DNA of 64,000 nucleotides from Deltaproteobacteria bacterium. Its GTDB lineage: Bacteria; Bdellovibrionota_C; UBA2361; SZUA-149; JAITKM01. Below the pieces are notes generated by a model that searched no databases, was not told the DNA's origin, and was given only the letters and a program-made list of their open reading frames with translations. The position numbers were made by a program, and so were the translations under genes. The DNA lies in the NCBI GenBank assembly GCA_031278395.1, contig JAITKM010000018.1:973-64972 (forward strand), read 5' to 3'. Of this stretch, positions 2,083-64,000 are shown in pieces. Positions within the stretch are counted from its first letter, which is position 1. Every line of letters starts with the position of its first letter.

Positions 2083-3867
2083 ATGAAAGGAAAAATATTA
2101 TACATTAATGGTAGAGAGGTTGAATTTGATAAAGAGCGCAATATCTTAGAAATCTGTCGGAGGGTAGGAATTGATATTCCAACTTTTTGTTATCAACCTG
2201 AATTGTCAGTTCACGGAGCTTGTCGCTTATGTTTGGTTGAAATTGAAGGGCGCGGCGTGCAAGCTAGTTGTTCAACTCCGCCGGAAGTCGGTTTAAAAGT
2301 TACGACTGAAAGCGAGCAGTTGCAAAAATTAAGAAAAATAAATCTTGAGCTACTTTTGGCAAGTCATCCGCAGGACTGTTTGACTTGTGGAAAAAGCACG
2401 CATTGTAAATTACAAGCATATACTAAGCGTTTTGGCGTGGACAAAATTCGTTATAAAAAAATAGAAAAGTCCTACCCAGATTTAATAAAAAAAAATGTGC
2501 CAGAGTATGCGGCAGCTGGTCAGACAGCTTGTTTGCCGCAGGATTGCTCTAGTCCTGCTTTAGTGCGTGATACTGCAAAGTGTATTTTGTGCGGTTGTTG
2601 TGTGCGTGCTTGTCGTGAGTTGCAGAGTGTGGGGGCTTTGGGTTTTGCTTTTCGTGGTTCTCAGAGTTTTGTGTTGCCAGCTTTTGGTAAAGGCTTGGGT
2701 AAAGGTCAGTGTGTTAATTGTGGGCAGTGTGCAGCGGTTTGTCCGGTCGGGGCTTTAATGCCCAGAAGTCAAGTGCAGGAAGTTTTTAAGGCAGTTTTTG
2801 ATAAATCAAAAGTTTGTGTGGCAGCAATTGCGCCAGCTGTGCGGGTGGCTTTAGGGGATGAATTTGGTGAGTCAGTTGGCGCAATTGTAACAGGTAAGAT
2901 AGTTACGGCGCTAAAAAATATTGGTTTTGATTATGTGTTTGATATTTGTCATGCTGCTGATTTTACTATTCTGGAAGAAGGTTCAGAGTTTATTAAACGT
3001 AAGACTAGCGGTGAAAATTTGCCACAATTTACTTCGTGTTGTCCAGGTTGGGTTAAATTTGTAGAGCAGACCTATCCAGAGTTGAACCACTTGTTAAGTT
3101 CGTGTAAGTCGCCGCAACAAATGTTTGGAGCTTTTGCGCAGGAATATTTACCTCAAATACTAAATCGCAAACGAGAGGAAATAACAATTGTCTCGGTTAT
3201 GCCTTGCACAGCTAAAAAGTTTGAAGCTCAAAGACAAGAGTTTAAACACGCCGGATTGTCAGATATAGATATTGTTATTACCACGCAAGAGTTAGCAACC
3301 ATGATTCGCGAGTCAGGGCAAAATTTTAAACAATTAAAACCTTCAGCCTTTGATAAGCCGTTTGGTGTACAAACAGGCGCTGGTATGATTTTTGGTGTTT
3401 CTGGTGGAGTTACGGAGGCGGCTTTAAGATTTGCCGCAGAGAAATTAACTGGGCAGAAAGCAGAGTTGGAATTTAAGCAAGTGCGTGGTGAAGGAAAAGG
3501 CATTCGGCGCGCGGTCTTGAATGTGGCTGGTGTGGAATTAAAACTAGCGCTGGTTTCAGGTCTGGCGAATGCACGCCAAATACTAGAGGCGGTCAAGTGT
3601 GGCAAGGAGCAGGCGGATTTAATAGAAGTTATGGCTTGTCCCGGGGGTTGTATTAATGGTGGTGGTCAGCCGTATCATCTTGAGGGACGAAGTGTGGTCA
3701 GAAAATTACGTTCTCAAGGGCTTTATAAGGCTGATAAATTAGCCCAGATAAAAAATTCGCAGGATAACCCAGACATGCTTGCTCAATACCAAAACTCTAT
3801 TGGCGAAATAGGTTCACATCACGCGCACGAGTTATTTCACACGCATTATGAGAATCGTAAGGAGTAG
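2083..3867 (+). CDS. hydA: [FeFe]-hydrogenase catalytic subunit (group A3, trimeric)
   Basis: H-cluster motifs FTSCCPGW, MPCTAKKFE and EVMACPGGCINGGGQP are intact. N-terminal NuoG-like Fe-S domains. Confidence 0.95.
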   Translation: MKGKILYINGREVEFDKERNILEICRRVGIDIPTFCYQPELSVHGACRLCLVEIEGRGVQASCSTPPEVGLKVTTESEQLQKLRKINLELLLASHPQDCLTCGKSTHCKLQAYTKRFGVDKIRYKKIEKSYPDLIKKNVPEYAAAGQTACLPQDCSSPALVRDTAKCILCGCCVRACRELQSVGALGFAFRGSQSFVLPAFGKGLGKGQCVNCGQCAAVCPVGALMPRSQVQEVFKAVFDKSKVCVAAIAPAVRVALGDEFGESVGAIVTGKIVTALKNIGFDYVFDICHAADFTILEEGSEFIKRKTSGENLPQFTSCCPGWVKFVEQTYPELNHLLSSCKSPQQMFGAFAQEYLPQILNRKREEITIVSVMPCTAKKFEAQRQEFKHAGLSDIDIVITTQELATMIRESGQNFKQLKPSAFDKPFGVQTGAGMIFGVSGGVTEAALRFAAEKLTGQKAELEFKQVRGEGKGIRRAVLNVAGVELKLALVSGLANARQILEAVKCGKEQADLIEVMACPGGCINGGGQPYHLEGRSVVRKLRSQGLYKADKLAQIKNSQDNPDMLAQYQNSIGEIGSHHAHELFHTHYENRKE

Positions 3868-49969: not shown

Positions 49970-50324
49970 GGGGGTGTTCTGGTTTCGACGTGGATTATGA
50001 ATCTTTATGTGGCGTGTCTCAGAGCCGTTGGCTGAGTTAACAAACGGCAAAAATGTAATCGCAAATACTGACGATTATGCAGAAATCGCTTTAGTAGCTT
50101 AATACTTTGGCGTCTTTTAGCTAGGTAGCTTGCGCTTGGTTAAAAGTTAATTTAGCAAACTAGGAAAATGTTGCTGCTTTGACGGCATAACTGAAAATTA
50201 TTCAAAGCTAGTTATAAAGTTCCTGTCTGAGGGAGGCGTTATGATGAAATTCAAACTTAGGCTACACACGTAGAGGCATTTAGAAACAAATTCGCGGACG
50301 GGGGTTCAATTCCCCCCACCTCCA
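49970..50324 (+). ncRNA. ssrA: tmRNA; tag peptide (A)ANTDDYAEIALVA encoded at 50061-50102
   Basis: 5' GGGGGTGTTCTGGTTTCGAC and 3' GACGGGGGTTCAATTCCCCCCACCTCCA. 7-bp acceptor stem with G.U; resume codon GCA; CCA not encoded. Confidence 0.96.
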
Positions 50325-50429
50325 TTTTTGGTTTTTCCCTATACATATATTTATATCGTGAACTAACTATAGCGCACAGCTTCCTGCTAGCGCTTTTTAC
50401 ATTTAACTTTATTTAGCTTAAATAATTAA

Positions 50430-50828
50430 ATCTCTACAGGAGTTTGGAAGTGGGTGATGGATAGTGAATTTATTGATAGTGAAGTATTAAACGCTAGCGG
50501 TGTTTTGGTGATTAATGACCGTAATGAAAAAGTCTATGGAGATTCGTATGTTTCACTTGCGCTAAAAAAGAATAAAGAAGGCGCCAAGACAGGTGTTAAG
50601 GTTATTCCTTTTGCGGACAGTTATAAATATATGTCAGAGAATGGCACGAAAAAAGTTGAGTTCTTGCTAGATCAGGAAGGGCAAAAAACAGTTAGCACCA
50701 TTGAGTTTAGTAGTGATGGTAAAACTCTTAACGGTGTCTCACGTGTCTCTGGTAAAGACCCAGTGAGCGGCAAGAGTTATACTGCGCATTATACTTGGAA
50801 AGCCCGACGAGTTAATAAGAAAGGGTAA
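50430..50828 (+). pseudogene. Probably 5'-truncated beta-rich hypothetical protein (GxWKW motif), paralog of the 28710 fragment
   Basis: The frame is open from 50430 (ISTGVWKWVMDSEFID...), upstream of the first start codon. The first 39 nt from 50439 share 33 identities with 28710-28748. Confidence 0.55.
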
Positions 50829-50902
50829 AACGTGGTAATTGCAAAAGGGGCGCGACTGGAGACGGTTGCGGAGTCCGCCACTAAATAGTTACTAAAAAGC
50901 AC

Positions 50903-50923
50903 GCCCAGGATTGCCTGGGCTAC
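50903..50923 (-). repeat. GTAG-type REP-like hairpin
   Basis: Minus strand GTAGCCCAGGCAATCCTGGGC. Confidence 0.55.
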
Positions 50924-50986
50924 ACAAAATCTTATTTTTCTCTCTTTTATTTTTTTGCCACTTCTGCTATAGGGCAGCGACTTCAT

Positions 50987-51008
50987 GCCTGGGTGGTGGA
51001 ATTGGTAG
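50987..51008 (+). tRNA. 5' fragment of tRNA-Leu truncated at the D-loop; probable prophage attL core
   Basis: GCCTGGGTGGTGGAATTGGTAG is the acceptor 5' strand plus D-arm of a type II (Leu-like) tRNA. No anticodon or T arm follows, and the sequence becomes AT-rich phage DNA. Confidence 0.75.
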
Positions 51009-51182
51009 TTGTGAAGAGGTGTTACTATGTTAGTCTACATATTCTATTTAGTTTTATAATTTCCTATACATAAGAATGTTGTTATATTAAGTATTTCTAT
51101 GTGTTTTTGCTATGTCTAGTTGTGTTTTTATTTGTTCTAAGTGAAAATGTGCTGCAAAAAATAAAGCTAATATAATGGCAGA

Positions 51183-51212
51183 TTAACAAGCTGGATTTAT
51201 CCGGCTTGTTAA
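51183..51212 (-). terminator. Hairpin ending the leftward early operon
   Basis: TTAACAAGCTGGAT-TT-ATCCGGCTTGTTAA. Confidence 0.6.
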
Positions 51213-51272
51213 AAGAGATATTGTACTATTATATTTTTTTGTATTAAGAAATTGTTGCAGTATACTACCTGA

Positions 51273-51470
51273 TTATAGTCCACTCTTCACGTTACTTTCC
51301 CATTTGATTACATCTTCCATTGGATAAAGTTTTTTGCCTTTTTTTAGCCCACTTGGGTTAAATGCTGGCGGCAGTTTTCCCTCCGACTGAAGTCGGTAAG
51401 CCACATTAATATCTATTCGCCAACGTTCGGCTAACTCTTTTATAGTTAAGAATTTTTTTTCCATAATCAC
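51273..51470 (-). CDS. Excisionase / AlpA-like helix-turn-helix protein
   Basis: FLTIKELAERWRI...YRL...GKLPP...LYPMEDVIKWE. Last gene before attL. Confidence 0.8.
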   Translation of the reverse strand: MIMEKKFLTIKELAERWRIDINVAYRLQSEGKLPPAFNPSGLKKGKKLYPMEDVIKWESNVKSGL

Positions 51471-51473
51471 CTC

Positions 51474-51746
51474 TTAAAACGGAATATCATCATTGTCAAA
51501 ACTTGTTCCAGTGTTACCCAGAGCCTGTTGTTTATTATCTTGCGTATTATTTTTCCCTTGTTGCTTTGGAGCAAAAGAAAAACTAAAATATTTCTTTTCA
51601 TCTTTTTCCTTAATCCAGCCAGAAATCCAATACTCAATATTATTAATTGTGCAGCTGCCAGTATAGTCTGGATGATTAGCTTGTTGCTTGCGTTCGTTTT
51701 TAAATAATACTCCTCGATTATTGTTGTTATATTGTTGTTGCGTCAT
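51474..51746 (-). CDS. Phage single-stranded DNA-binding-like protein
   Basis: GVLFKN...HPDYTG...YWISGW small beta domain with an SSB-type acidic tail DNDDIPF. Confidence 0.7.
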   Translation of the reverse strand: MTQQQYNNNNRGVLFKNERKQQANHPDYTGSCTINNIEYWISGWIKEKDEKKYFSFSFAPKQQGKNNTQDNKQQALGNTGTSFDNDDIPF

Positions 51747-51754
51747 AATTATCC

Positions 51755-51946
51755 TTAATATATTTCCTCTTCAAAAACTAAAAGCTGCTTTAGTTCTTGA
51801 ACTTGATTGTTAATATTTTTAGTCTGATTTAAAATTTTATTCCCTCGCTCATTCACGCTAAGTGCAAGCGGAGTGCCAACTAAAATAATTCCAAAAATAA
51901 AATAAATTACAATTCTATCAAACATTGTAAATTTGCATGTATTCAT
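51755..51946 (-). CDS. Small phage membrane protein (1 TM plus coiled coil)
   Basis: GGAGGAG RBS before ATG 51946; hydrophobic IVIYFIFGIILVGTPLAL. Confidence 0.6.
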   Translation of the reverse strand: MNTCKFTMFDRIVIYFIFGIILVGTPLALSVNERGNKILNQTKNINNQVQELKQLLVFEEEIY

Positions 51947-53601
51947 ACTAACTCCTCCTTTATCTGTTTGCTTACGCCTTTTTCTATCCAATAAACGTTA
52001 CCTAAACCCATCTTTTCTAGTTTGGGAGCTTTAACAGGAAGATTAACCATCATCCCAACAAAGGATTTAAACTTCATTACACTAAGCGCGCTTAATAATC
52101 CTTTGCGCCCGTTAGCGTCTAGCAGCTCTGCTCCGTCTATAACTACAGCGTCTGAGTTATCTAATATCGCTGCGGCTATCTGTAAGGTTACACGCACGCG
52201 AAATTGCTCAGAGGCTGACAGGATAGGGTAAGGACGCCCTGCGAAATAAATAGTTAAATCACGATTAATAGATACTGTTGCCCAGTTAGCTTTTTGACAG
52301 ATTTCTTTAAGTGATAAATTAAATTCATCTAAACCTCGCTCCATTGCCTGCCTACGGATACCGTTTTCGTCTAATGCATCAACTATGACCTGATTAGTAA
52401 TTATATTATTATGTAAACGTTGTGATTCTGTGTATTTCTTAAAGGCTTGCAGCTGCAACTCTATCATACATAGTGCTTCACGCTTAGCATTAATTATATG
52501 TGTACCGATTGTTGCGCTGCTTATTGTTTTTAGTTGTTGCACCGCCTCTTGAGCAGATTTTAGTTTTTGTTCGCTCTTATTAAGAGCAGATTGTCTAAAT
52601 TCTAGTACCTGTAAAGCTTTTGTCATCTCATCTGATATTTTATCTATCTGTTGTTTTAATGCTGCTACTTCATCCTTAGACATCGAAGAAGTTTTTTTGA
52701 GATATAGACCATGTATAATAACATTTTCTCCACAATATGGGCATGGAACACCTTTCTCCGGCAACGGTGGTAAAGTTTTAGCTTTAAACTCCAAGCTATC
52801 GACATTCTGTTTTGCTGATTGATATAATTTTTTAGATTTCAGCAGTGCTGATTGCAACTCGGTAATACTATTAGCTTCCTCTGTTAGTTTAGCTCGGACA
52901 TCGTCTGAGACTGCTTGCTTGCCTATCATATCTTCTAATTCTGAATTTAATAGAGTAATTTGCCCTTGCAATGCCTCCTGTGAACTAGTCTGTAATGATG
53001 CGTCCCAACCAAATTCCGGTGTCCAAATCTCACCTTTTTTAGAGCCGTATTGTTCGCCTGTTACATAAGCCCATTGTGATTTGAAGGATTTACCTTTTTC
53101 CTTTGCGGTGTTTAGTTGCGCTTCCCAACCATTTATCTCTATTTGTTTCCATAGAGTATCTATCAATTCCTGTTTAATTCCCTTTTTTAATAATTCGTTT
53201 TTAAAATCATCTTTAGTGGGTAGACAGTTTAGAAGTTTTCTTAAATACTCAACCCTTCTTTTTTCATCCATATCAATTATGGATTCTAACCCAGCCGCAA
53301 CCGTCGAGGCTTTGGGGGGATTAGTTCCGTTAGTGCGTAATTCTGCTTTAGGGTAATTAATTTCTGCCGCGCCTTCGTCACCTGAAAGTATTACGTTCGC
53401 TTCTATTGAGCCAAGCTTAACAAGTAATCCTGCATCTTGTTTTTTTAACCCTAGCGGCATTGTAAGTCCACTCAGAGTAGCGGAGATTGGACGCAGTGCA
53501 GAAGATTTTCCCTGGTGATTTTGCCCTGTTAATAGGGCAATAGGGGCAGCTTTTATTGATATATTTTCCGCCCCCATAAAGTTAGTTATTGTTGCTTTCA
53601 T
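51943..53601 (-). CDS. Rad50/SbcC-like ABC ATPase with zinc hook
   Basis: Walker A GQNHQGKSS, coiled coils around CPYCG, signature LSASE, Walker B VVIDG. Confidence 0.8.
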   Translation of the reverse strand: MKATITNFMGAENISIKAAPIALLTGQNHQGKSSALRPISATLSGLTMPLGLKKQDAGLLVKLGSIEANVILSGDEGAAEINYPKAELRTNGTNPPKASTVAAGLESIIDMDEKRRVEYLRKLLNCLPTKDDFKNELLKKGIKQELIDTLWKQIEINGWEAQLNTAKEKGKSFKSQWAYVTGEQYGSKKGEIWTPEFGWDASLQTSSQEALQGQITLLNSELEDMIGKQAVSDDVRAKLTEEANSITELQSALLKSKKLYQSAKQNVDSLEFKAKTLPPLPEKGVPCPYCGENVIIHGLYLKKTSSMSKDEVAALKQQIDKISDEMTKALQVLEFRQSALNKSEQKLKSAQEAVQQLKTISSATIGTHIINAKREALCMIELQLQAFKKYTESQRLHNNIITNQVIVDALDENGIRRQAMERGLDEFNLSLKEICQKANWATVSINRDLTIYFAGRPYPILSASEQFRVRVTLQIAAAILDNSDAVVIDGAELLDANGRKGLLSALSVMKFKSFVGMMVNLPVKAPKLEKMGLGNVYWIEKGVSKQIKEELV

Positions 53602-53603
53602 TT

Positions 53604-54467
53604 TTATTCCTCCCCCCAGTCACTATTATCTCCCTGTTCTGGTTTTGCTTCTGTTTTAGACTCAGGCTCTATAAACTTAGGGATTGACGATGTCGTTTCA
53701 TTCGCCTTCGAGGGGCGACCACGTTTTTTTATTGTGATAGCTACTTTATTTTTTTCTAACTCCGCTTCTGCTGTCGTCTCTGGCTCGGCGACTTGCGCCA
53801 TTTGTAACACTGGAGTTTCTAGTTTGGGTATTTCAGTTTCTTTTACTTCTATTATATCTATAATTTCTTCATGAGATTGTAACCCGTTTAAAATTTCAGC
53901 AACATATCGTTTCCCAAAAAAACTCGCTGCACGATAGGTAAGCATTAATTCAGGCATTGTTTTCCATTTACTGCCTTCTTTATCATACCAGCCTTCTTTA
54001 ACTGCCATTTCGATTGTTACGGTTGGTGATTTTAGGGTTTCGCCTGTAGCTTTTTCTTTACAATACGCAAAACAAGAAAAATCATGTATTTTAAATGATA
54101 CTTTCTCATATTTTCCTGTCTGATAATTTTTATAATTATATTCGACCGTTTTTTCTCCTAAGTCTTTTAGGTCAAAGTTTAAGTGAGTAAATCTCCCGCA
54201 GGAATTTATAACTGAAATAATATACTGCGAACTCCAGCAAGGACGTCCTTTAATTATAAAAAGATTTTGCATTACCATCAAAGGCGAAATGTTTTGACGC
54301 ATTGCGATATCAAGAGCGATCATCATATCGCCCTTATTCTTTTTATAAGTCTCTGGTATAATACTGCTGCCAGAAAGGATGTTTATAATTTCATTAATAC
54401 TTCCAAACTTGCTAAAAATACCAAGTGCTTTATTGTTATTTACTACTGTGGATATTTCGTTTTCCAT
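53604..54467 (-). CDS. RecT/Red-beta-like single-strand annealing protein
   Basis: IPETY...DMMIALDIA...SPLMVMQNLFIIKGRP.WS, GSKWKTMPELMLTYRAA; acidic tail. Confidence 0.75.
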   Translation of the reverse strand: MENEISTVVNNNKALGIFSKFGSINEIINILSGSSIIPETYKKNKGDMMIALDIAMRQNISPLMVMQNLFIIKGRPCWSSQYIISVINSCGRFTHLNFDLKDLGEKTVEYNYKNYQTGKYEKVSFKIHDFSCFAYCKEKATGETLKSPTVTIEMAVKEGWYDKEGSKWKTMPELMLTYRAASFFGKRYVAEILNGLQSHEEIIDIIEVKETEIPKLETPVLQMAQVAEPETTAEAELEKNKVAITIKKRGRPSKANETTSSIPKFIEPESKTEAKPEQGDNSDWGEE

Positions 54468-54468
54468 T

Positions 54469-55311
54469 TTAAATCTCCTTATTAAGATTATTAAAATTAA
54501 TTTTTTTGTGTGATTTACAAAAATCTGTGCCCCAAGCCGGGCAATAATCTGGCGTGCACATCATGGAGTTAGGGTTAGGTAACCACGCCCAGATATCGCC
54601 GTTTTGGCGGAATTTTTGTAAATCTGATTTTATTTTTTGAATTATTTGGTAAGCGATAAGTTCCGCTTCTTTGACGCTATATTCAACTATTATAGGCTCT
54701 GGCTGAGGCTTAATTATACCAACCCGTTTTATGTAAATCTCGCCTATTTTATTTATTCCTATTCCGTTAGAACGGCATAGAAGCGAGTAGCATCCATACT
54801 GCGCCTGATTAGCACGATGTACTGTGCCAGTTTTTAAATCCCAAATTTCTCCTTCGGAGCGGATATCAATGTGTCCTGAAATTATAAAATTATCACCAAA
54901 ATCTGCTGTGTATTCTTCCTCTATTTTTACAGCAGTTAAAAACGATATAGCACCTAAAACAGCATGCGCCATCCTGACAGCTTGATTTATTGCATCGTCC
55001 TTTTTTCTCGTTGTATCGTCCCAGATTACGCCGTAAGCGATACTCTGCTCAATCGATTCGGCGGCTGTCTCACGCATCGGCTGGATATAGTCACAGCCGT
55101 CTTTAATTAATAATAAAGCAGTCTCTAAAGACTTATGCGTTGCTGTTCCGACAGCCGCTCCGATTGAAATTTGTAATTTATTTATTTTAAATCCGTATTG
55201 CGCCAGCTCTTTAAAAAACATTTTAGCCGCAGCACGTCGTGTGCAGTCTGTATAATGAGGTAGGCTCGATGCCCGTATTATCGTTGTTTTTGGATTATTT
55301 TCGTTTCCCAT
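54469..55311 (-). CDS. Cas4/AddB-like PD-(D/E)XK exonuclease with 4-Cys Fe-S staple
   Basis: RASSL...DC, GTATH, GHID...WDLKTG...QYGCY, C-terminal CTPDYC...FC. Confidence 0.8.
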   Translation of the reverse strand: MGNENNPKTTIIRASSLPHYTDCTRRAAAKMFFKELAQYGFKINKLQISIGAAVGTATHKSLETALLLIKDGCDYIQPMRETAAESIEQSIAYGVIWDDTTRKKDDAINQAVRMAHAVLGAISFLTAVKIEEEYTADFGDNFIISGHIDIRSEGEIWDLKTGTVHRANQAQYGCYSLLCRSNGIGINKIGEIYIKRVGIIKPQPEPIIVEYSVKEAELIAYQIIQKIKSDLQKFRQNGDIWAWLPNPNSMMCTPDYCPAWGTDFCKSHKKINFNNLNKEI

Positions 55312-55326
55312 GTTTGTCCCGTTAGC

Positions 55327-55380
55327 GTTATAATTAGAACATTATACTATAATTGGTAACATTACAATACAAAATGTAAC
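55327..55380 (-). promoter_or_regulatory. Leftward early promoter with three putative repressor operators (OL-like)
   Basis: Three related boxes ending in AAC at 55340, 55360 and 55380 (20-bp period). A related box GTTACAAAATAGAAC lies at 58032-58046. Confidence 0.55.
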
Positions 55381-55451
55381 AAAACGAGAAATAATATTTA
55401 TTATTTAATTATTATAGTTAGTTATATATTACAAAAAATAAAAATAATTTA

Positions 55452-55480
55452 TTGACTAATTGTATCTTATAGGATACAAC
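55452..55480 (+). promoter_or_regulatory. TA promoter with palindromic autoregulatory operator
   Basis: TTGACT-17bp-TACAAC overlapping the palindrome TTGTATCTTATAGGATACAA (55460-55479). Confidence 0.7.
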
Positions 55481-55487
55481 TACAAAT

Positions 55488-55787
55488 ATGATAATTGAGA
55501 AAACAGAAATTTTTGAGAAATGGTTAAAAAGGTTAAAAGATGAGCAGGCTAAAGGTTGTATTAATATTAAAATAAAAAGAATAGAAACAGAAAATTATTT
55601 CGGAGATTGTAGGTCAGTTGGTGATGGAATTTTTGAGTTACGTATTTTTGTAGGTCCTGGATATAGAATATATTTTTACTACAAAGACGAAAGGGTTATA
55701 ATGCTGCTTTGTGGTGGCAATAAAAAAACTCAAAAAAGAGATATTAAAACGGCAAAACAAATATTAAAAGGAGAATATAAATTATGA
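55488..55787 (+). CDS. RelE/HigB-family addiction module killer toxin
   Basis: FEKWLKRLKD...FGDCRSVGDGIFELRIFVGPGYRIYF...LLCGGNKKTQKRDI. Confidence 0.9.
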   Translation: MIIEKTEIFEKWLKRLKDEQAKGCINIKIKRIETENYFGDCRSVGDGIFELRIFVGPGYRIYFYYKDERVIMLLCGGNKKTQKRDIKTAKQILKGEYKL

Positions 55788-56086
55788 AAAAACTAAAAAC
55801 AACAAAATGGGATATATTAGATTATCTTGATAACGAAAAGGCAATTGCTGCTTATCTTTCTGCTGCAATTGCCGAAAATAATTTACCAACTTTTATTACC
55901 GCAATAGGTGATGTTGTTCGCGCACGTGGAGTAAACGACATGGCTAAAAAAATGAAAGTCGGCAGGGAAAGCCTTTATAAAAGCTTTTCTGGAAAAACCA
56001 AACCAAATTTTGAGACAGTCATAAAGGCACTTGATATATTAGGGGTTAAAATCAATGTTCTTCCTAAAACAAAATCGTGTAGATAA
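55784..56086 (+). CDS. Addiction module antidote protein (HTH antitoxin)
   Basis: WDILDYL...IAAYL...GDVVRARGVNDMAKK...RESLYKSFS...PNFETV. ATGA overlap with the toxin. Confidence 0.9.
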   Translation: MKKLKTTKWDILDYLDNEKAIAAYLSAAIAENNLPTFITAIGDVVRARGVNDMAKKMKVGRESLYKSFSGKTKPNFETVIKALDILGVKINVLPKTKSCR

Positions 56087-56088
56087 AA

Positions 56089-56862
56089 TTATGCGGCTAA
56101 TAGTTCTTTAGATGCTTCTTTTTGAGACCATAAAATAGTATTAATATCATATACTTTAAGGGCTTCAGTTGCTTCGTTTGATATATTTTTATCCTCGTCG
56201 TTAGCTATAACATAGGCTACTGACTTATCCGTACGCATATCTTTAGTATCAAGCCAATCCATAATAAACATACTAGTTGAAGTTTTATTAGGATAATTAA
56301 TAGCTCTTATTATTCTTTCTGGTGAGTTGGTTGATCTAGGAATTACGTAATCAAAACGCCTAGAGAATCCAGTTTTACCGGATAATAAAACATCAGGAGT
56401 ATATCTTATATTAGAATTTTTTAGCCAATTTCCAACATTTTCTAAAAATAAGTTTGTAGAATGCGGAGATGCAAGATAATACAAATCATTAATAGAAATA
56501 ATAGCTTGTAGTAGGCAGTGTTTTTTATAGGGAAAATCTTTGATTGTGGCAGCCGTAGTTAGTTCGTTGTTTTTACCTAATTTTATACCAAAACCATTTA
56601 AGACAATTTTTAAATAGTCTTTATTTTTTAAGGTTTCAAGGGATAGTCCAGACGATAATAAATCATTTATTGTTTCCCCGCCGTCATTAAGAATAAAATT
56701 TTCTTTTTCCTCGTTCTTAAAGTAGATTTGAATCGCATCGTTATGTCTGTCTAGATATGGGGTAGTTATTTCAGACCAGCCGTTTCCAACATCCTCAAAG
56801 GTTGTTTGGTCTCTTAACCAAATATAATAGTTATCAATCATTTTTTGTAATTCTATTTTCAT
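56089..56862 (-). CDS. DUF1828/DUF1829 protein (C-terminal restriction-endonuclease-like domain)
   Basis: ITTPYLDRHNDAIQIY, LNDGGETI.DL, GKTGFSRRFDYVIP, DWLDT. Confidence 0.8.
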   Translation of the reverse strand: MKIELQKMIDNYYIWLRDQTTFEDVGNGWSEITTPYLDRHNDAIQIYFKNEEKENFILNDGGETINDLLSSGLSLETLKNKDYLKIVLNGFGIKLGKNNELTTAATIKDFPYKKHCLLQAIISINDLYYLASPHSTNLFLENVGNWLKNSNIRYTPDVLLSGKTGFSRRFDYVIPRSTNSPERIIRAINYPNKTSTSMFIMDWLDTKDMRTDKSVAYVIANDEDKNISNEATEALKVYDINTILWSQKEASKELLAA

Positions 56863-57312
56863 ATATGGAAGTTCCTGATTTGCAGTATATTTGGAGGTTT
56901 CACTATATGACAGAATTTCATAAAATCCTCAAATGTTTTATAGAAATCAGATAAATCTGTAAATATTTCCTTAGGTATTTCTATTGCGAATTTATCTAAA
57001 AAATTCTCTTTATAAATATGTAAATGATTACTACTAAGTTTTTGTCCATCTGGATTTGTATGTGGCGCACTATTAATATCTAGTCTCGCTAAAATAATTA
57101 CTTTTCGACTTCTTAGGTTATTAGATATTTTATTTAGTTTAAATTGATTTTTTGTATAATCAATTATAAATTCCTCTTTTTTATTCTCAGAAATAAAATT
57201 TAATGATAATTTACCACCACCTAAATCAGGTAAAGATATTTTTTTCGTTCTTATAATACTTATTTATTGCTAGTAAATTATCTGCTTCTTTTTGCGACAT
57301 ATTGGCGTTCAT
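56859..57312 (-). pseudogene. DUF6978-like prophage protein interrupted by a frameshift in an A7 run (not in ORF track)
   Basis: Frame 1 reads MNANMSQKEADNLLAINKYYKNEK, then stops. Removing one A (57239-57245) gives ISLPDLGGG...ARLDINSAPHTNPDG...HLHIYKE...FMKFCHI, ending in an ATGA overlap with the DUF1828 gene. Confidence 0.75.
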
Positions 57313-57322
57313 ATATTATATA

Positions 57323-57898
57323 CTAAAAATAATTAACAAATGACCCAATAACACGCCCTAATATTTTTACATCTTTAATTTTCATTTCTGTTTTTATCGT
57401 ATATTTTTCATTATCGCATTTTATCAGTGCTTTTTCAGCGATTAAATCAACTTCCACACGCCGAAAACCGTAGTTATCACCTATTGTAGGAATTACGTAG
57501 ATTCCAGATTTATCAATTTTATTAATACCAAAATCCACGAGCACAGAATCATCCGGCTTAAATGTTGGATACATTTCGTCGCCTGTTAGTTTAACCCATT
57601 TTGGGATTATTGCGTTGGGAGCTATATTAATATTAGTAATAATTTTTTCTTCAGAATCTAAAAGTTCCCCAGCGGGAATCTGAAGAGCATTTGCTAATTT
57701 AATTACATGTTCATGCTTTGGGTATTTAACATGCCCAGTCATTATTTTTCTTAATATCTCGTAAGATACACCAGATTTTTGTGCAAGATCTGCCAGAAGG
57801 TCAAATCCTCTCTTTTTCATGTATAGTTTTAAATTTTTAATTAGTGCTTCTGTTTCTGTTGGTACAGTTTCTTTTTTTAATATTTTTTCCCGTTTCAT
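57323..57898 (-). CDS. CI/LexA-like phage repressor (HTH plus degenerate S24 domain)
   Basis: XRE HTH LADLAQKSGVS...KLANALQI; S24 fold GDEMYPT...DSVLVD...FRRV...DNEKY...ILGRVI. Confidence 0.88.
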   Translation of the reverse strand: MKREKILKKETVPTETEALIKNLKLYMKKRGFDLLADLAQKSGVSYEILRKIMTGHVKYPKHEHVIKLANALQIPAGELLDSEEKIITNINIAPNAIIPKWVKLTGDEMYPTFKPDDSVLVDFGINKIDKSGIYVIPTIGDNYGFRRVEVDLIAEKALIKCDNEKYTIKTEMKIKDVKILGRVIGSFVNYF

Positions 57899-58025
57899 AG
57901 CCTTCCCGAAGATTTTTCTGATTAAATATACGTATATTAACTATCTTTGTAAATAATATCGCCTCTTTTTTAGGATAATTTAAAATTTTTTGTTCACTTT
58001 TATAAACAAAAGGGAATAATTATAC

Positions 58026-58052
58026 TTGACTGTTACAAAATAGAACTATAAG
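58026..58052 (+). promoter_or_regulatory. Rightward early promoter with putative operator (OR-like)
   Basis: TTGACT directly followed by GTTACAAAATAGAAC and TATAAG. The -35/-10 spacing is non-ideal. Confidence 0.5.
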
Positions 58053-58060
58053 GGAATATT

Positions 58061-58127
58061 AATCACGGCGGCTCAATGGTAGCTCCTTTGAGTGCAAGAT
58101 TTTCCCGATCTTTGTCCGTGATTTTTT
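58061..58127 (+). ncRNA. Candidate double-stem-loop regulatory RNA in the cro position
   Basis: Closing stem AATCACGG/CCGTGATT enclosing GCTCAA/TTGAGT and AAGAT/ATCTT hairpins, followed by a T-run. Confidence 0.5.
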
Positions 58128-58151
58128 AAGGGATAAAATCGAGGGAATGGA

Positions 58152-59588
58152 ATGCAACTTAGAGATTATCAAATAAAAGCAATCGACGACATCAAGCAAG
58201 CATTCGCTTCAGGGTTTAGGGCACCGTTATTTCAGATGATGTGCGGTGGAGGTAAGACGGCAATTCTCTCTCATATCACAAAGGGTGCAGCGCAAAAACA
58301 AAATCACGTATGTATCGTTGTTCATCGGCAAGAACTAGTAACACAAACATCAGTAGCTCTCGCGCGTACAGGCGTGTGGCATAACATTTGTGCAACTAAT
58401 AACGTTGTACAGTCTGCTATCAAATCTCAAATAAAATCTACTGGTAGGTCTTATTATCAGTATGAATCATTTGTAACAGTAGCGTCTATTCAGACGTTAA
58501 TTCGTCGTATGCACGAATATCCAAGTTTTAATTTTCTACTACTAGATGAGGCAGCGCATGCCTGCGCTGCAACGTGGACTAAACTAATCTCATATTATCC
58601 AAAAGCTAAAATTCTAGGTGTTACTGCAACTCCACAGCGCCTTGATGGCAGAGGTTTAGGTGTCGAATCTGGAGGTGTGTTTGACACGCTTATAAATGGA
58701 CCAAGTGTCAAACACCTTATTGAACAAGGCTGGTTGTCAGACTATAAAGTTTACGCTCCGCCAAACGATTTAAATTTAGATGGAATAAAAAAAATCGCCG
58801 GCGACTACGCTAAAAACGAACTTGTAAAACTTGTCGATAAAAATAAAATTACAGGCGATGTAATCGAGCATTATAAAAAAATATGTAACGGTGTCCCATC
58901 CATTGCGTTCTGTGTATCGATAGAACATGCAAAACATGTAGCGGAGCAATTTAAAGCCGCAGGTTATCGTGCGGCTTGCATTGACGGCAAGTTAGACGAT
59001 TATACGCGTCGTTCTTACATTGATGCGCTTGGTTGTGGTGGTTTAAATGTTTTAACCTCCTGTGAGATTATTTCAGAAGGCACAGATATACCTATCGTGG
59101 GTGCAGTGATTCTTTTACGCCCGACGCACTCTTTATCATTGCATTTGCAACAAATCGGCAGAGGGTTACGTCTATACCAAGATAAAGAATATGTAATAAT
59201 TTTAGACCACGTAGGAAATATAGCTCGACATGGATTTCCAGATGACGCCCGTGAGTGGACATTAGAGGGAAGGTCTTTTAAAAATAAAAAAATATCAGAT
59301 AAAATTCTATCAATTCGTCAGTGCCTAAACTGTTACGCAATATATCCAGCAAATTTAAACATCTGTCCGCAGTGTAAAACACCGCTACAAAAATCAACAC
59401 GAGAGATTCAGCAAGAAGAAGGACAATTAATAGAAATTCAGCGCCTACAGGAACGTAGGCAAGCACGAATCGAACAAGGTAGAGCGCAGGCATTAAAAGA
59501 CTTAATAGAACTAGGAAAGCGCAAGGGATACAAAAATCCTTACGCGTGGGCAAAGTATGTTTTTAACGCAAGGATAAAAACGGCATGA
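58152..59588 (+). CDS. Phage superfamily 2 DEAD/DEAH helicase with C-terminal zinc ribbon
   Basis: LRDYQ, CGGGKT, DEAAH, TATP, SEGTD, QQIGRGLR, CLNC...CPQC. Confidence 0.9.
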   Translation: MQLRDYQIKAIDDIKQAFASGFRAPLFQMMCGGGKTAILSHITKGAAQKQNHVCIVVHRQELVTQTSVALARTGVWHNICATNNVVQSAIKSQIKSTGRSYYQYESFVTVASIQTLIRRMHEYPSFNFLLLDEAAHACAATWTKLISYYPKAKILGVTATPQRLDGRGLGVESGGVFDTLINGPSVKHLIEQGWLSDYKVYAPPNDLNLDGIKKIAGDYAKNELVKLVDKNKITGDVIEHYKKICNGVPSIAFCVSIEHAKHVAEQFKAAGYRAACIDGKLDDYTRRSYIDALGCGGLNVLTSCEIISEGTDIPIVGAVILLRPTHSLSLHLQQIGRGLRLYQDKEYVIILDHVGNIARHGFPDDAREWTLEGRSFKNKKISDKILSIRQCLNCYAIYPANLNICPQCKTPLQKSTREIQQEEGQLIEIQRLQERRQARIEQGRAQALKDLIELGKRKGYKNPYAWAKYVFNARIKTA

Positions 59589-59995
59589 GATATAGACATA
59601 AAAAACGGGCTCAAAACAACTTAGCCATAAAATTCTCCGATACACCAGAGGTTAATCTCTTAATAGCGATTATAAAACAAAGTTGGGTTGATGAACTACT
59701 ACCGACTTACGGCATTTCCCGAAAAAGCTCAGGTATTAGAAGTAGAAATGATAAAATATCGGCGCATGATTTTTTTTATCACGGCGATTATTTCGGTGAA
59801 ATCTGTAATGTAATTAATCTCAATCAAGAGCAATTTATATATTATTTAGAAAAGGTAAAAATAATTTTAAATAACAATAAAAAACTAAGACAGCCGCAAA
59901 AAGTTTTAGAAATTTTTAGATTAGTTATAAAAAAAATGATTCGTACCCAAAACGATGAAGATAATTATAATTTCCATTTATGCAAGAATCATTAA
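59585..59995 (+). CDS. Hypothetical phage protein
   Basis: Translationally coupled between the helicase and VRR-NUC genes. Confidence 0.65.
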   Translation: MRYRHKKRAQNNLAIKFSDTPEVNLLIAIIKQSWVDELLPTYGISRKSSGIRSRNDKISAHDFFYHGDYFGEICNVINLNQEQFIYYLEKVKIILNNNKKLRQPQKVLEIFRLVIKKMIRTQNDEDNYNFHLCKNH

Positions 59996-60360
59996 TTTTA
60001 AAAAAAATAATGTTAGCATTAGGGCAGCTTAAAACTCTCCGTATTTGGCGTAATAATACAGGCGTTTTATGGAGCGGAACAGATATTAAAAAACTAGGTA
60101 AGGATATTTATATTAAAAACGCTTATCCTGTCAGGTTCGGATTAGAAGGCTCGGCGGACATTTTAGGAATTATTGCGCCGGATGGAAAATTTTTAGCAAT
60201 AGAAGTTAAACAACAAAGAGGTAGGCAGTCAGAGAAGCAAAAGAATTTTGAGAATATGATTAAATCCTTGGGGGGAGTTTATATTTTAGCACACTCTCCT
60301 GAGGAAGCTTTAGAAAAATTAAAAGTTGTTATTAACGTTAATAAAACAGAAATAATATGA
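59980..60360 (+). CDS. VRR-NUC domain nuclease
   Basis: ES.I...WRNNTG, GSADILG...FLAIEVK...QSEKQ..F...GGVY. Confidence 0.88.
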   Translation: MQESLILKKIMLALGQLKTLRIWRNNTGVLWSGTDIKKLGKDIYIKNAYPVRFGLEGSADILGIIAPDGKFLAIEVKQQRGRQSEKQKNFENMIKSLGGVYILAHSPEEALEKLKVVINVNKTEII

Positions 60361-62828
60361 GCAAAAAACTAGATTTCGATAATATAAATATTAACGCTTT
60401 AAATCGTTTACCAACGCTACTTAGGGAATGGTTACCTGAAGGAGTACAACAAGGAAACGAATATGTATGTGGCTCATGGAACGGAGAGAAAGGGACATCG
60501 TTATCTATTAATATTAACACTGGTAAAGGTGGAGATTTTGCCTCTAACGATTTAGTTGGTGATCCTATAGGAATTTATGCAAAACGGTTTAATATAGATA
60601 GGGTTCAAGCAGCTAGAGAATTAGATAAAATAGTTAACAATACACCTGAGGTTATATCCAAGCCTAAAAAAGTAGATTCCGAAGTAGAAAAGATAAAAAA
60701 ATTAAATAAAATTCTTTCAGAGTCTGTTTCGTTGCTTAAAACACCTGCTCAAAAATATCTCCAAAATAGAGGATTAACTTCTTGTAATACTAATATTTTT
60801 AAATATCGTCCTCATAAATCCGGCGGTGGTTCTCTAGTCTGTATAGCGTTTAATGAAAATAATGAGGTTAAGGCTGTTCAACAAGTTTTTATAACTGCTG
60901 AAGGTAAAAAGAATACAATTGTAAAGAATATAAAAATAACAAACGGGTTTCCGTCTGGTAATCCAATAAGAATACCAAGGCGTCCAAGTGTTTCAGAAAA
61001 TACACCTATAATTGTCTGCGAAGGACCAGAAGATGCGATAACCTTATCTAATGCTACAGGGTTTGAAGTCTGGGGAACATGTGGACTTAGTTTTATGGAT
61101 AAGATTCCTTTTATTCCTGAACGCCAGTATTTAATTGTTCGAGACAATGACCCTATAGGCTCTGAAGCAGATGTAAAAATTAACAAAATTATCTCAACGT
61201 TAATAGACCGAGGTTTAAACAATCTGTTATGCACACGTCCGCCGGATGGAGTTAAGGATTCAAATGAATTATTGAAGACTACTGGAATTAAAGCTGTTGA
61301 AGAAATGATTAATAACGCCCAGCCGGTGCATGATTTTAGGAATTTAACCGAGGAAGACACCCAAAAATCTCAAGCCTTAGAAAATGAAGTATGCGAAAAT
61401 AATGAAGTAAATAAATTTTTAACTAAAGAAGGGTTAAAAATAAAAAACTGTTCGAAATATGAATATAACGACACTGGAAATTCTGAACGCATTGTTGAGC
61501 ATTGGGGGGATAAAGTTAAATATATAGACGAATTAAGTTGGGCTATATATAAAAAAGGAAGATGGGAGCTGGCATCTGATAAAAGAGCGCTTAATATGGT
61601 TATGGATGTTATTAAAAAAATAAAAAAAGAAAGAAATTACATCACAGAGATTAGAAAAGAGGCTTTAGAAAAGTGGTATTGGAAATCAAGAAGCGAACAT
61701 TGTACTAGGGCATCTCTTAATCTAGCAAAAGCAAAACTTCTTATTGAAGCAGAAAAATTTAATCAGTATCCATATTATTTAAATTGCAATAACGGTGTTT
61801 TGGATCTTAAAACTGGGAAGCTTTTACCACATAACCCGGAATATTACTTAACTAAAAAGATAGATACTAATTATGACCCATCGGCAAAGTGCCCCCAATG
61901 GGATAAGTTTCTAAATGAAATTTTCTCTGGCAATATAGATTTAATTAATTATATTCAAAGATGTGTTGGATATAGTTTAACAGGCGATACATGTGAACAG
62001 TGTATGTTTATTTTTTTAGGGCATGGTTCTGATGGGAAGTCTCTATTTTTTGATGTATTAAAGAATTTACTACGGGATTATCATTGCAATATTCCTGTTT
62101 CTACTTTTGAGCTAAAAAAACAGGAGAATGAAGCACAACCGTTTATAGCTCAATTACAAAATATTCGTTTCGTTGTGTCAGCAGAAAGTAATACAGATGT
62201 TTATTTTAATGAAGCATTAATAAAATCACTAACAGGAGAAAGAGAGATTGTGACTAGGGGACTATATTCTGCCCCAATAAATATGAAAATAGAGTTTAAA
62301 ATTTGGTTATCTACTAATTATAAGTTAAAACTTAAAAATACTGAAAGAGGAATAAAAAGGCGTTTAAAATTAATTCCTTTAAACGAATATTTTTATGAAG
62401 ATGGCGATAATTCAGAAGAGGCGAAAAAAGGAAGATTAAAGGATAAAAAATTATATGAAAAACTTTCAACGGAAAAAGAAGGTATTCTTGCTTGGGCAAT
62501 TAGGGGATGTTTAGAGTGGCAAAAACTAGGTGGATTACATGAGGTAGACATAGTTAAGGATACAACAGAAAACTATTTTAAAGAAATGGATACTATTGGA
62601 AATTTTTTAGAAGAGTGTTGCGAAAAAAATCCTTGCTATTCTATAGAGGCAAGAGATTTGTATCAATCTTATAGAAAATGGTGTGAAAAAACGGGACATA
62701 TAGCATTTGCAGACAATGGTTTTTATAGAAAATTATCGGAAAAAAATATCGAAAGAAGACACACACGATGTGGAAATAGATATTTTGGAATAGTATTAAA
62801 AAATTGGAATAATAATTTTGTTAATTAG
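60357..62828 (+). CDS. Phage primase-helicase (Toprim + D5-N + P4-family SF3 helicase)
   Basis: YLQNRG, VCEGPEDA, RDND, KDSNE Toprim motifs; DTGNSER, LNCNNGVLDL; Walker A GHGSDGKS; IKSLTG, RRLKLIP. Confidence 0.9.
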   Translation: MSKKLDFDNININALNRLPTLLREWLPEGVQQGNEYVCGSWNGEKGTSLSININTGKGGDFASNDLVGDPIGIYAKRFNIDRVQAARELDKIVNNTPEVISKPKKVDSEVEKIKKLNKILSESVSLLKTPAQKYLQNRGLTSCNTNIFKYRPHKSGGGSLVCIAFNENNEVKAVQQVFITAEGKKNTIVKNIKITNGFPSGNPIRIPRRPSVSENTPIIVCEGPEDAITLSNATGFEVWGTCGLSFMDKIPFIPERQYLIVRDNDPIGSEADVKINKIISTLIDRGLNNLLCTRPPDGVKDSNELLKTTGIKAVEEMINNAQPVHDFRNLTEEDTQKSQALENEVCENNEVNKFLTKEGLKIKNCSKYEYNDTGNSERIVEHWGDKVKYIDELSWAIYKKGRWELASDKRALNMVMDVIKKIKKERNYITEIRKEALEKWYWKSRSEHCTRASLNLAKAKLLIEAEKFNQYPYYLNCNNGVLDLKTGKLLPHNPEYYLTKKIDTNYDPSAKCPQWDKFLNEIFSGNIDLINYIQRCVGYSLTGDTCEQCMFIFLGHGSDGKSLFFDVLKNLLRDYHCNIPVSTFELKKQENEAQPFIAQLQNIRFVVSAESNTDVYFNEALIKSLTGEREIVTRGLYSAPINMKIEFKIWLSTNYKLKLKNTERGIKRRLKLIPLNEYFYEDGDNSEEAKKGRLKDKKLYEKLSTEKEGILAWAIRGCLEWQKLGGLHEVDIVKDTTENYFKEMDTIGNFLEECCEKNPCYSIEARDLYQSYRKWCEKTGHIAFADNGFYRKLSEKNIERRHTRCGNRYFGIVLKNWNNNFVN

Positions 62829-62837
62829 GGAAAATTT

Positions 62838-63350
62838 ATGTATTACGATGTATTAAAAGAGTTAAATGAAGCCGATAAATATATTGAGGCAAATTCAAAT
62901 AACTTGTGTAAAAAATTTAAAACAATAAAAGAATATAATATGCTTAAAAAATGGATAGATGATAAAAAAAATTCCAATTATAGAAAAAAAATACCGCCAG
63001 TCGTAGGCTTTTATTGTTTTTTAATTCACTCTCGTGAATATATTAAAGGAGAACATATTTTAGGTAATATTTATAAACATTATAAATATTTCTGTTGTTA
63101 TAATCATTTTAAACACTATTACTGGGGGCAATTTTGTTTTAAATTATCTGAGGTTAATTTTTTAACGAGCAATAATAAATATACAAGATATTCGTTAGTT
63201 AAAGGTAGTTGGTGTTGTTTTACGTATATGACATATTATAAAGAGCAGAAAGCTCACAACTATTGTGGTGTTCCATTTTTTATACACCAGCTGAATAGTA
63301 ACGTATTAGATAGAGAGCTAACGAAGCACAAGATAGAAAAAAAAACATAA
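62838..63350 (+). CDS. Hypothetical phage protein (Tyr/Cys-rich; possible winged-helix relic)
   Basis: ORF 9 bp after the primase with a GGGAA RBS. Confidence 0.55.
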   Translation: MYYDVLKELNEADKYIEANSNNLCKKFKTIKEYNMLKKWIDDKKNSNYRKKIPPVVGFYCFLIHSREYIKGEHILGNIYKHYKYFCCYNHFKHYYWGQFCFKLSEVNFLTSNNKYTRYSLVKGSWCCFTYMTYYKEQKAHNYCGVPFFIHQLNSNVLDRELTKHKIEKKT

Positions 63351-63424
63351 ACGGACGGAGTGGGTATATAGTAATGTTGCTTTAATAACTTGATTAATTA
63401 TTAAAATTAATTTATTTATTAGCC

Positions 63425-63490
63425 ATGGGGTCAAAAACTCTATACATACCGGTCGACCACTCCCGTAAGTTTAGTGGATTTTTTATGTCT
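63425..63490 (+). ncRNA. Candidate C4/CI-like antisense RNA element
   Basis: Hairpins ATGGGGT-CAAAA-ACTCTAT and CCACT...AGTGG followed by a T-run. CCACTCC is complementary to upstream GGAGTGG (63357-63363). Confidence 0.4.
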
Positions 63491-63612
63491 AAAATTTGAT
63501 TTAAGTGCGAGATTTACAGAGTTATAATTAACCTCCTTGAAAGAAAAGGTTTTACATGCTATGCGCAACACAGTTATTTTGTAAATAACCTAAAAAAAAC
63601 TCGCGAGGAAAC

Positions 63613-64000
63613 ATGGGGAACGTATTCAATATTGCTAAAAAATTATGTGAAGCAAACGGCTGGGGAGCCTCTAATTTAAAATTACAAAAAACTCTTTATC
63701 TTTCTCAGTTATTATCTATAGGAAAACGCCAAAAACCTTTATTTGACGCCGGATTTGAAGCTTGGATGTATGGTCCTGTATGCCCACCAGTTTATAATGA
63801 ATTTAAAATGTTTGGCTCTAAGCCAGTAGAAGAATGGGCATTTCCTAATATTAAAAACATAACCGATTTGGAAGAAGAAAACGAGTTTATTAAATGGGTA
63901 GTTAGCCTTTTAAGAGAAAAAACATCCTTTAATTTAGTTGCATTAACTCACCGAAAAGGCACAGCATGGGATAAAAGGTTTGTTCCAGGATTAAGAAACT
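63613..64000 (+). CDS. Panacea-domain (DUF4065/SocA/GepA-like) antitoxin, truncated by window end (not in ORF track)
   Basis: Manual translation MGNVFNIAKKL...SNLKLQKTLYLSQ...PLFDAGFEAWMYGPVCPPVYNEFK...LVALTH...W; GAGG RBS. Confidence 0.88.
   Translation, partial: MGNVFNIAKKLCEANGWGASNLKLQKTLYLSQLLSIGKRQKPLFDAGFEAWMYGPVCPPVYNEFKMFGSKPVEEWAFPNIKNITDLEEENEFIKWVVSLLREKTSFNLVALTHRKGTAWDKRFVPGLRN

Follow-up and report, generated by a model that had tools for sequence, protein, structure and literature searches.

A 63-nt segment of the plus strand (58061..58123), located between a cI-like repressor gene and a divergent replication operon in a prophage-like region of Deltaproteobacteria bacterium GCA_031278395.1, is predicted to fold into a Y-shaped RNA. 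We tentatively regard this element as a cis-acting 5' leader of the replication operon, in which a promoter-proximal attenuator would be combined with a translational brake. The window analyzed, i.e. the whole stretch of 64,000 nucleotides to which the positions refer, comprises bases 973-64972 of one contig (JAITKM010000018.1) in a genome bin of 1.71 Mb (36% GC, 63 contigs) from a termite-gut metagenome. The host RecA is nearest to those of Bdellovibrionota, Oligoflexia and 'Deltaproteobacteria' metagenome-assembled genomes, so that sigma-70 promoters and Shine-Dalgarno (SD) rules are reasonable, though assumed, for this host. Three DNA sequencing runs at the locus gave one identical contig without variants.

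The fold is the one first described for this region. Both the minimum free energy (MFE) and the centroid structures contain an 8-bp closing stem (58061-68/58116-23) with a CACGG/CCGUG core, a first hairpin at 58071-93 with the loop UGGUAGCUCCU, and a second hairpin at 58096-58112 with the loop UUUCCCG (or UUCCC if a sixth, U-G, pair is formed). They are followed by a run of six T's (58122..58127), the putative termination point, the first two of which are paired in the closing stem. The exact element reaches -19.8 kcal/mol (z -2.57), and 4 of 200 dinucleotide shuffles were equally good; with the T-run included, the z-score was -2.71 (again 4/200 shuffles). On the minus strand the fold is weaker (-16.0, z -1.95). 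The element also forms a GC island, with a GC content of 0.48 versus 0.20-0.25 in the remaining intergenic sequence. When 6000 of the 7016 T6 runs of the genome were sampled, an enclosed structure of -19 kcal/mol or lower preceded 0.88% of them, and the region from -93 to +30 of the helicase gene that heads the operon has the 23rd lowest MFE among 1406 gene starts. Taken together, these values make 58061-58123 a credible structured RNA, although no single figure is compelling. A tRNA or tRNA-like origin was rejected, as ARAGORN found nothing at its default or 80% thresholds in bacterial mode; the calls made in its very lax metazoan-mitochondrial mode were disregarded.

The position of the element is that of a leader. 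The gap between cI and the helicase gene was said to be free of any cro-like open reading frame (ORF), and indeed no plus-strand ORF of at least 25 amino acids lies wholly within 57899-58151. Among the 45 ORFs of at least 25 amino acids in 55000-62000, only two touch this gap, one on the plus strand and antisense to the cI start (57819..57956), the other on the minus strand with a TTG start (58059..58199); neither is cro-like. The typical first rightward gene of a lambda-type switch, cro, is thus missing. The best candidate for an early-right promoter (58026..58052, plus strand), recognized by eye, consists of TTGACT (58026-31) and TATAAG (58047-52). Its 15-nt spacer is outside the range of the promoter scan, and it implies a transcription start at about 58059-61, approximately the first base of the fold. 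Weaker, overlapping candidates found by the scan on the same strand (57993-58020 and 57999-58026) would start further upstream. Downstream of the element, the sole candidate (58112-58139) was rejected as a helicase promoter, since transcription from it would begin within the SD. As judged from these promoter matches, the helicase operon has only one plausible 5' leader, and the element should therefore be part of it.

The hairpin-2 loop had also been proposed to pair in cis with the helicase ribosome-binding site (RBS). This complementarity is real and extends further than originally stated. In the predicted fold of the read-through leader, the loop, the 3' half of hairpin 2 and the linker (58101-58117) pair with the segment that includes the helicase SD (58131-58147), giving an alternative helix over 58101..58147 of the plus strand, while 58086-58096 pairs with the helicase start-codon region (58153-58164). 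The leader 58059-58181 has an MFE of -32.6 kcal/mol (z -2.14, 3/200 shuffles). At equilibrium the mean pair probability is 0.88 for the anti-SD helix versus 0.00 for the closing stem, and enforcing the Y-shape in the read-through leader gives -26.3 instead of -32.6, a cost of 6.3 kcal/mol. Since the closing stem vanishes in the extended leader, the Y-shape would be confined to the RNA while it is nascent or after it has terminated. On this folding model, the RBS of the read-through mRNA should be masked by the mRNA itself.

In the proposed mechanism, transcription from a cI-controlled promoter just upstream, for which 58026-58052 is the best candidate, would first yield the Y-shaped fold. At the G+C-rich closing stem set against the U-run, some polymerases would stop and release an RNA of 65-70 nt. 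Transcripts that read through would refold, the hairpin-2 segment UUUCCCGAUCUUUGUCC pairing with GGGAUAAAAUCGAGGGAA and covering the helicase SD, and the 3' half of hairpin 1 pairing with the start-codon region of the helicase. Helicase translation would remain low unless something keeps the leader open. The short terminated RNA would be a by-product, with or without an action in trans. What the analysis shows is the fold with its genomic rank and position, together with the alternative fold; the transcription start, the termination and the translational effect are inferred. The original prediction had offered two functions, and attenuation of the replication operon is the one that best fits the leader position, the terminator-like structure and the SD sequestration; silencing of cI by the RNA as a surrogate of Cro is neither established nor refuted.

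Several observations weigh against the attenuating leader. As in intrinsic terminators, a stable G+C-containing stem stands directly before the U-run, but this stem closes a 47-nt branched interior and not a single short-loop hairpin, which makes the structure non-canonical. A scan for simple-hairpin terminators (loop 3-8) called no site at the element, and the full closing stem leaves only four unpaired U's after it. The start of the best promoter candidate, with its 15-nt spacer, is only implied, and the closing stem would be lost if transcription began at 58067 or further downstream. When the element was folded with arbitrary flanks, the z-score was only -1.75 (11/200 shuffles). Moreover, the occlusion of the helicase SD is ordinary (unpaired probability 0.37, rank 282/1406), and the anti-SD duplex (-17.6) was equalled by 51 of 1000 shuffles. 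A covariance model of the element found only the element itself in its own genome, the next match having an E value of 1.6; it gave one match (E 6.7) among 94 loci around helicase relatives (543,390 bases), and only matches of E 0.65 and 0.95 in 31 genomes of the same order. As no homologue was found, there is no covariation to draw upon. Finally, in one relative (locus L043, helicase 52% identical) an exonuclease-RecT operon and the helicase gene are directly divergent, and the gap between them holds one 76-amino-acid minus-strand ORF (2147-2377) and 120 nt. A near-consensus promoter, recognized by eye, would give this relative a leader of about 25 nt, without the element.

The strongest competing explanation is that the element serves no function of its own, and that chance produced both fold and matches in an ordinary 5' untranslated region (UTR) that also holds promoter and operator sequences. 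We consider this possible, if on the unlikely side. All the statistics are moderate (z -1.75 to -2.7), relatives lack such a leader, and neither a homologue nor covariation nor an Rfam family accompanies the element. A cmscan of 57000-59000 and 58030-58160 against Rfam (E <= 10) returned no C4 family match. The only rows overlapping the element were BtsR1, Cobalamin and RSV_RNA (E 2.3-8.2, far below the gathering scores), and the sole row on its own strand was a truncated, sub-threshold Cobalamin. No match was obtained when 57300-58200 was compared with phages by blastn, and the exact 22-mer of hairpin 1 had 0 matches in viral contigs. In addition, SDs of the GGGAA type make any RNA containing UUCCC look complementary to several gene starts. 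Against chance stands the coincidence of independent features: the GC island, a place among the top 0.9% of T-run structures, the low MFE rank of the leader (23/1406), the position right after the best promoter candidate, and two mutually exclusive stable folds that share one segment.

Relatives of the replication module show how the slot before the helicase is otherwise filled. The closest helicases are 54-58% identical. The helicase query found 3 loci in viral contigs (24-40% identity) and 4 in metagenome contigs (36-40%), and 0 relatives among 82 pattern matches in genome contigs; in 61 related genomes the best match outside the own genome was 29-31% identical. The primase query found 1 locus (31% identity). 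In six helicase relatives a divergent promoter lies between the exonuclease operon and the helicase gene, the latter following it directly; cI is absent, and no helix-turn-helix (HTH) ORF was detected. A PDDEXK/DUF3799 gene lies just upstream of the helicase gene, on the opposite strand, at five loci (L046, L050, L053, L060 and L068). Pseudomonas phage ZRG1 (helicase 43% identical) has an annotated HTH regulator (2696-3001) directly before the helicase gene and overlapping its start, and Bordetella phage PBb002 (44.5%) has three small hypothetical genes in this place. No HTH or S24 family was detected by Pfam at E <= 1e-4 in the 63 ORFs nearest the helicase, drawn from 170 upstream ORFs of 18 viral loci, although small Cro-like proteins can escape Pfam. 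From these sequences, a 'helicase first' order is common in this module, and the pre-helicase slot is variable, being occupied by nothing, by small ORFs, by an HTH gene or, here, by a structured leader. The description of the switch as 'Cro-less' holds in that no cro ORF is present; its premise is weakened by the six relatives without cI or HTH ORF and by the HTH gene of ZRG1.

In the model of the original prediction, the terminated RNA of about 65-70 nt would act in trans as a Cro surrogate and block new repressor synthesis once the lytic promoter has fired. The hairpin-2 loop and, on opening, the 3' half and U-tail of the RNA would pair with the cI RBS and codons 3-5. We regard this as doubtful. 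The two sites reported in the cI mRNA do exist, and both are complementary to 58100-58108: UCGGGAA (57904-10, 7/7) lies in the cI RBS and CGGGAAAA (57885-92, 8/8) in codons 3-5. A third, new match to hairpin 2 was found at 57909-57922 (12/14), so that the cI translation-initiation region (57885..57922, minus strand) contains three complementary stretches. The best consensus match to a promoter in the region (10/12), TTTACA-17-TATATT at 57925..57953 on the minus strand, is a candidate cI promoter; it implies a start near 57918 and a 5' UTR of about 20 nt, with both loop-2 target sites inside the cI mRNA.

By several measures this complementarity is uncommon. Of 1409 gene starts, 2 (one of them cI) carry two separate complements of at least 7 nt to the loop-2 12-mer, as do 3 of 5000 windows drawn at random from the genome. 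When the loop was shuffled 20000 times, 22 versions gave the same double match at the cI start; of 20000 random 12-mers, 132 did. The duplex of hairpin 2 with the cI start (-13.3) ranks 12th of the 1409 gene starts. The structure-aware cofold (free-energy change, ddG, -10.9 kcal/mol) ranks 4th, with helices that flank the cI AUG. The cI start region itself is open, being nearly unstructured (-0.5 kcal/mol), and the two-loop Y-shape resembles that of the P1 c4 RNA. These sequence comparisons place the complementarity somewhat above chance, at a level of the order of one hundredth after allowing for the choice of loop and target, which is far from proof.

Other results argue against an action on cI in trans. 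Shuffled small RNAs paired with the cI start as well as the native one in 183 of 500 cofold trials, and this start behaves as a sticky target: 16 shuffled RNAs ranked it 1 to 63 of 150 sampled targets (median about 17), two of them at rank 2 or better, and the native RNA also ranked it 2. Unstructured as it is, the region forms good pairings with U-rich RNAs in general, or at least with most of them. At 11 nt, the longest match to hairpin 2 is found not in cI but inside another gene, at 53502. Loop 1 has no complement of at least 6 nt in the cI start, nor one of at least 8 nt at any gene start in 50300-64000. The target was picked after the match had been seen, no co-variation of loop and target is available, and complementarity between divergent transcripts amounts to direct repeats in the DNA, which could have arisen for other reasons. 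The host genome (92.4% complete) yielded no Hfq, although a loop-loop mechanism would not need it. As a separate observation, the 11-mer AAGATTTTCCC, the core of hairpin 2 without AAGATTTTCCCC, recurs exactly and on the same strand at 53502-53512 in a 552-amino-acid gene, and its reverse complement occurs at 56530-56540 in the DUF1828/1829 gene, which makes three copies in 14 kb.

The nature of the repressor also bears on this model. The cI-like gene (57323..57898, minus strand) encodes 191 amino acids with HTH_3/HTH_26 and Peptidase_S24 domains according to Pfam, and is a CI-like repressor according to PHROGs. As in lambda-type switches, an HTH plus S24 repressor is thus divergent from the lytic operon. 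Its S24 catalytic positions, however, appear to be substituted. In a single pairwise alignment at 25% identity, and hence provisionally, GDEM of the repressor stands opposite GDSM of the host LexA, and the catalytic Lys region of LexA aligns with a gap and FRRV, with no Lys there. The repressor is therefore probably not RecA-cleavable or self-cleaving. Induction would have to proceed in some other way, and an RNA stopping only new synthesis would act slowly, since it would leave the existing repressor in place. No relatives of the cI protein were found in viral or genome contigs (0 in each), a word-level search of a 5.8-billion protein set recovered only the protein itself among 166 candidates, and phmmer gave no relative in the PDB. 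A perfect 14-nt palindrome, AATATACGTATATT (57925..57938), lies over the cI -10 box and is an operator candidate. It is unique in the window, every other copy having at least 3 mismatches. As a possible operator shared by the exonuclease promoter region and the switch, only 14-mers with 3 mismatches, such as TTTTGTTCACTTTT and TTTTGTTACATTTT, were found, which is suggestive but unproven.

A single RNA of 65-70 nt might also have a dual function, serving in cis as an attenuator that hides the helicase RBS and in trans as an anti-SD loop that clamps the cI start codon between two helices. We regard this, too, as doubtful.

In another alternative, which we hold to be very improbable, ribosomes translating a leader peptide would occupy the anti-SD segment together with the closing stem's 3' strand, thereby preventing termination and freeing the helicase SD, so that expression of the operon would be coupled to translation. 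A 17-codon ATG mini-ORF, found by eye on the plus strand (58076-58129), runs precisely across hairpin 2, the closing stem's 3' strand and the T-run; its end lies 22 nt before the helicase AUG. Comparable events are described in the accessible parts of two reports, namely unfolding by an upstream ORF at the isrK locus (PMC4825925) and ribosome-controlled termination for mccA (PMC4231749). On the other hand, the SD of the mini-ORF is weak (GGCGG, 4-nt spacing) and its AUG is buried in hairpin 1; ORFs this short are common by chance, and no relatives show conservation of the peptide.

Least probable of all, the signal would reside in the DNA itself. Proteins would then bind the inverted repeat of 8 bp as well as the direct ones (three TTYCCCG and two AAGGGAATA at 40-nt spacing), which would be operators or an origin beside the replication genes, in an AT-rich region (20-25% GC). 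The exact 9-mer AAGGGAATA occurs only twice in the 64 kb, at the ends (58010 and 58050) of two imperfect 40-nt tandem units (57988..58067, plus strand) that align at 22 of 34 positions by eye and may be operator or promoter repeats. The 8-mer TTTTCCCG, however, is found 4 times in the window versus 3.1 expected, and the weaker fold of the minus strand favours an RNA of the plus strand. A search for P4-alpha-type iterons revealed no cluster, as TGTTMAC had 11 matches versus 17.3 expected. Sequences containing TGTTAC and related to the 40-nt tandem units were noticed beside the hexamers of the exonuclease promoter region (55340-55385).

The surrounding region has the features of a prophage. The rightward operon begins with the superfamily-2 helicase gene (58152..59588; ResIII and Helicase_C, by Pfam and PHROGs) and continues, after one unknown ORF, with a VRR-NUC gene (59980-60360) and a D5_N primase-helicase gene (60357-62828), all on the plus strand. 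Leftward are the cI-like repressor, a DUF6978 gene, DUF1828/1829, a PD-(D/E)XK exonuclease, RecT and an SSB-like gene. A Gp49/HigB-like and HI1420/HigA-like pair (55488-56086) is embedded against this operon on the plus strand, and a SocA/Panacea-domain ORF (63613-63999, plus strand) lies at the window end; both probably represent prophage cargo that serves in addiction or defence. As for the cI-DUF6978-DUF1828/9-HigBA block, it has the look of an insertion here. The DUF6978 gene (56864-57312, minus strand), between cI and the DUF1828/1829 gene, is split into two frames, a 28-amino-acid ATG ORF (57226-57312) being followed in the other frame by 120 residues that match positions 28-133 of the 133-position profile (E 9e-35). 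Situated close to an A7 run, the break may be a frameshift or an assembly error.

The prophage-like region adjoins a transfer-messenger RNA (tmRNA) gene (49970-50324), whose tag is ANTDDYAEIALVA and which forms its border. No integrase was recognized among the scanned ORFs beside the tmRNA gene, and 50454-50828 had no Pfam or PHROG match. Since the contig ends about 250 bases beyond the window, the prophage is incomplete here.

Among known phage RNAs, the closest working analogue of the proposed leader may be IsrK of the Gifsy-1 prophage of Salmonella. In the available part of its description, a promoter-proximal terminator yields a short RNA and a read-through isoform that is silent owing to alternative structures (PMC4825925). 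The likeness would consist of a short terminated isoform, a read-through isoform that may be translationally silent, and an upstream ORF. The silent isoform is suggested here by the predicted anti-SD helix (mean pair probability 0.88), yet its SD occlusion is no stronger than that of many other gene starts (282/1406, as given above). There are also differences. According to the same source, the short isoform of IsrK acts in trans as an activator of the long one and regulates an anti-Q gene, whereas the short RNA considered here carries the anti-SD segment and could thus only repress in trans, and its operon is one of replication. No sequence or Rfam relation between IsrK and the element was found.

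The c4 RNA of P1 and P7, CI of P4 and CA of N15 are small phage RNAs with a closing stem and two hairpins. In the c4 family both loops are complementary to paired target boxes in the regulated mRNA, and the 5' end is made by RNase P. The element shares the closing stem and two hairpins, in its MFE and centroid structures, as well as the position of a small RNA heading a phage operon and the proposed pairing of a loop at an RBS. It differs in that only loop 2 has a candidate target and loop 1 has none. Moreover, those RNAs maintain immunity, while the RNA proposed here would oppose a repressor, and a protein repressor is present. The likeness to C4, CI and CA that had been put forward is therefore borne out for the architecture, but not by a match to any Rfam covariance model or by a target for the other loop. 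In the accessible text of a review, the P1/P7 c4 RNA is stated to act by pairing at the RBS of ant (PMC12197685).

Other systems provide partial parallels. In the lambdoid Cro proteins and in the HTH gene of ZRG1 the same slot is used, that of the first rightward element facing the leftward recombination operon; these, however, are proteins acting on DNA, whereas here no ORF of at least 25 amino acids is present. The 6S RNA of lambda, from PR' to tR', is a short transcript that ends just after a phage promoter and ahead of a long operon. The lambda site precedes the late genes and is overridden by Q, while here the operon is an early replication operon and no antiterminator was identified. The 6S RNA is named as a small RNA of the late operon in the part of a preprint that was available (bioRxiv 10.1101/2024.10.31.621285). 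The lysogeny-control RNAs listed in the accessible text of the review include VpdS, PreS, 24B_1, sar, OOP, aQ and c4, and none of those described there represses cI translation from the position of cro (PMC12197685). Nor was an RNA substituting for Cro found in the literature searched, which included that portion of the review and was not exhaustive.

If the leader works as proposed, it would be a further example of RNA-level control heading a phage early operon, from a poorly known lineage. If the RNA does act in trans on cI, it would perform the job of Cro, i.e. the shut-off of the repressor, without a protein, in a phage whose repressor probably cannot cleave itself. The element is an orphan prediction, and its practical value is as a well-defined system on which reporter fusions and in vitro termination assays could be tried at low cost.

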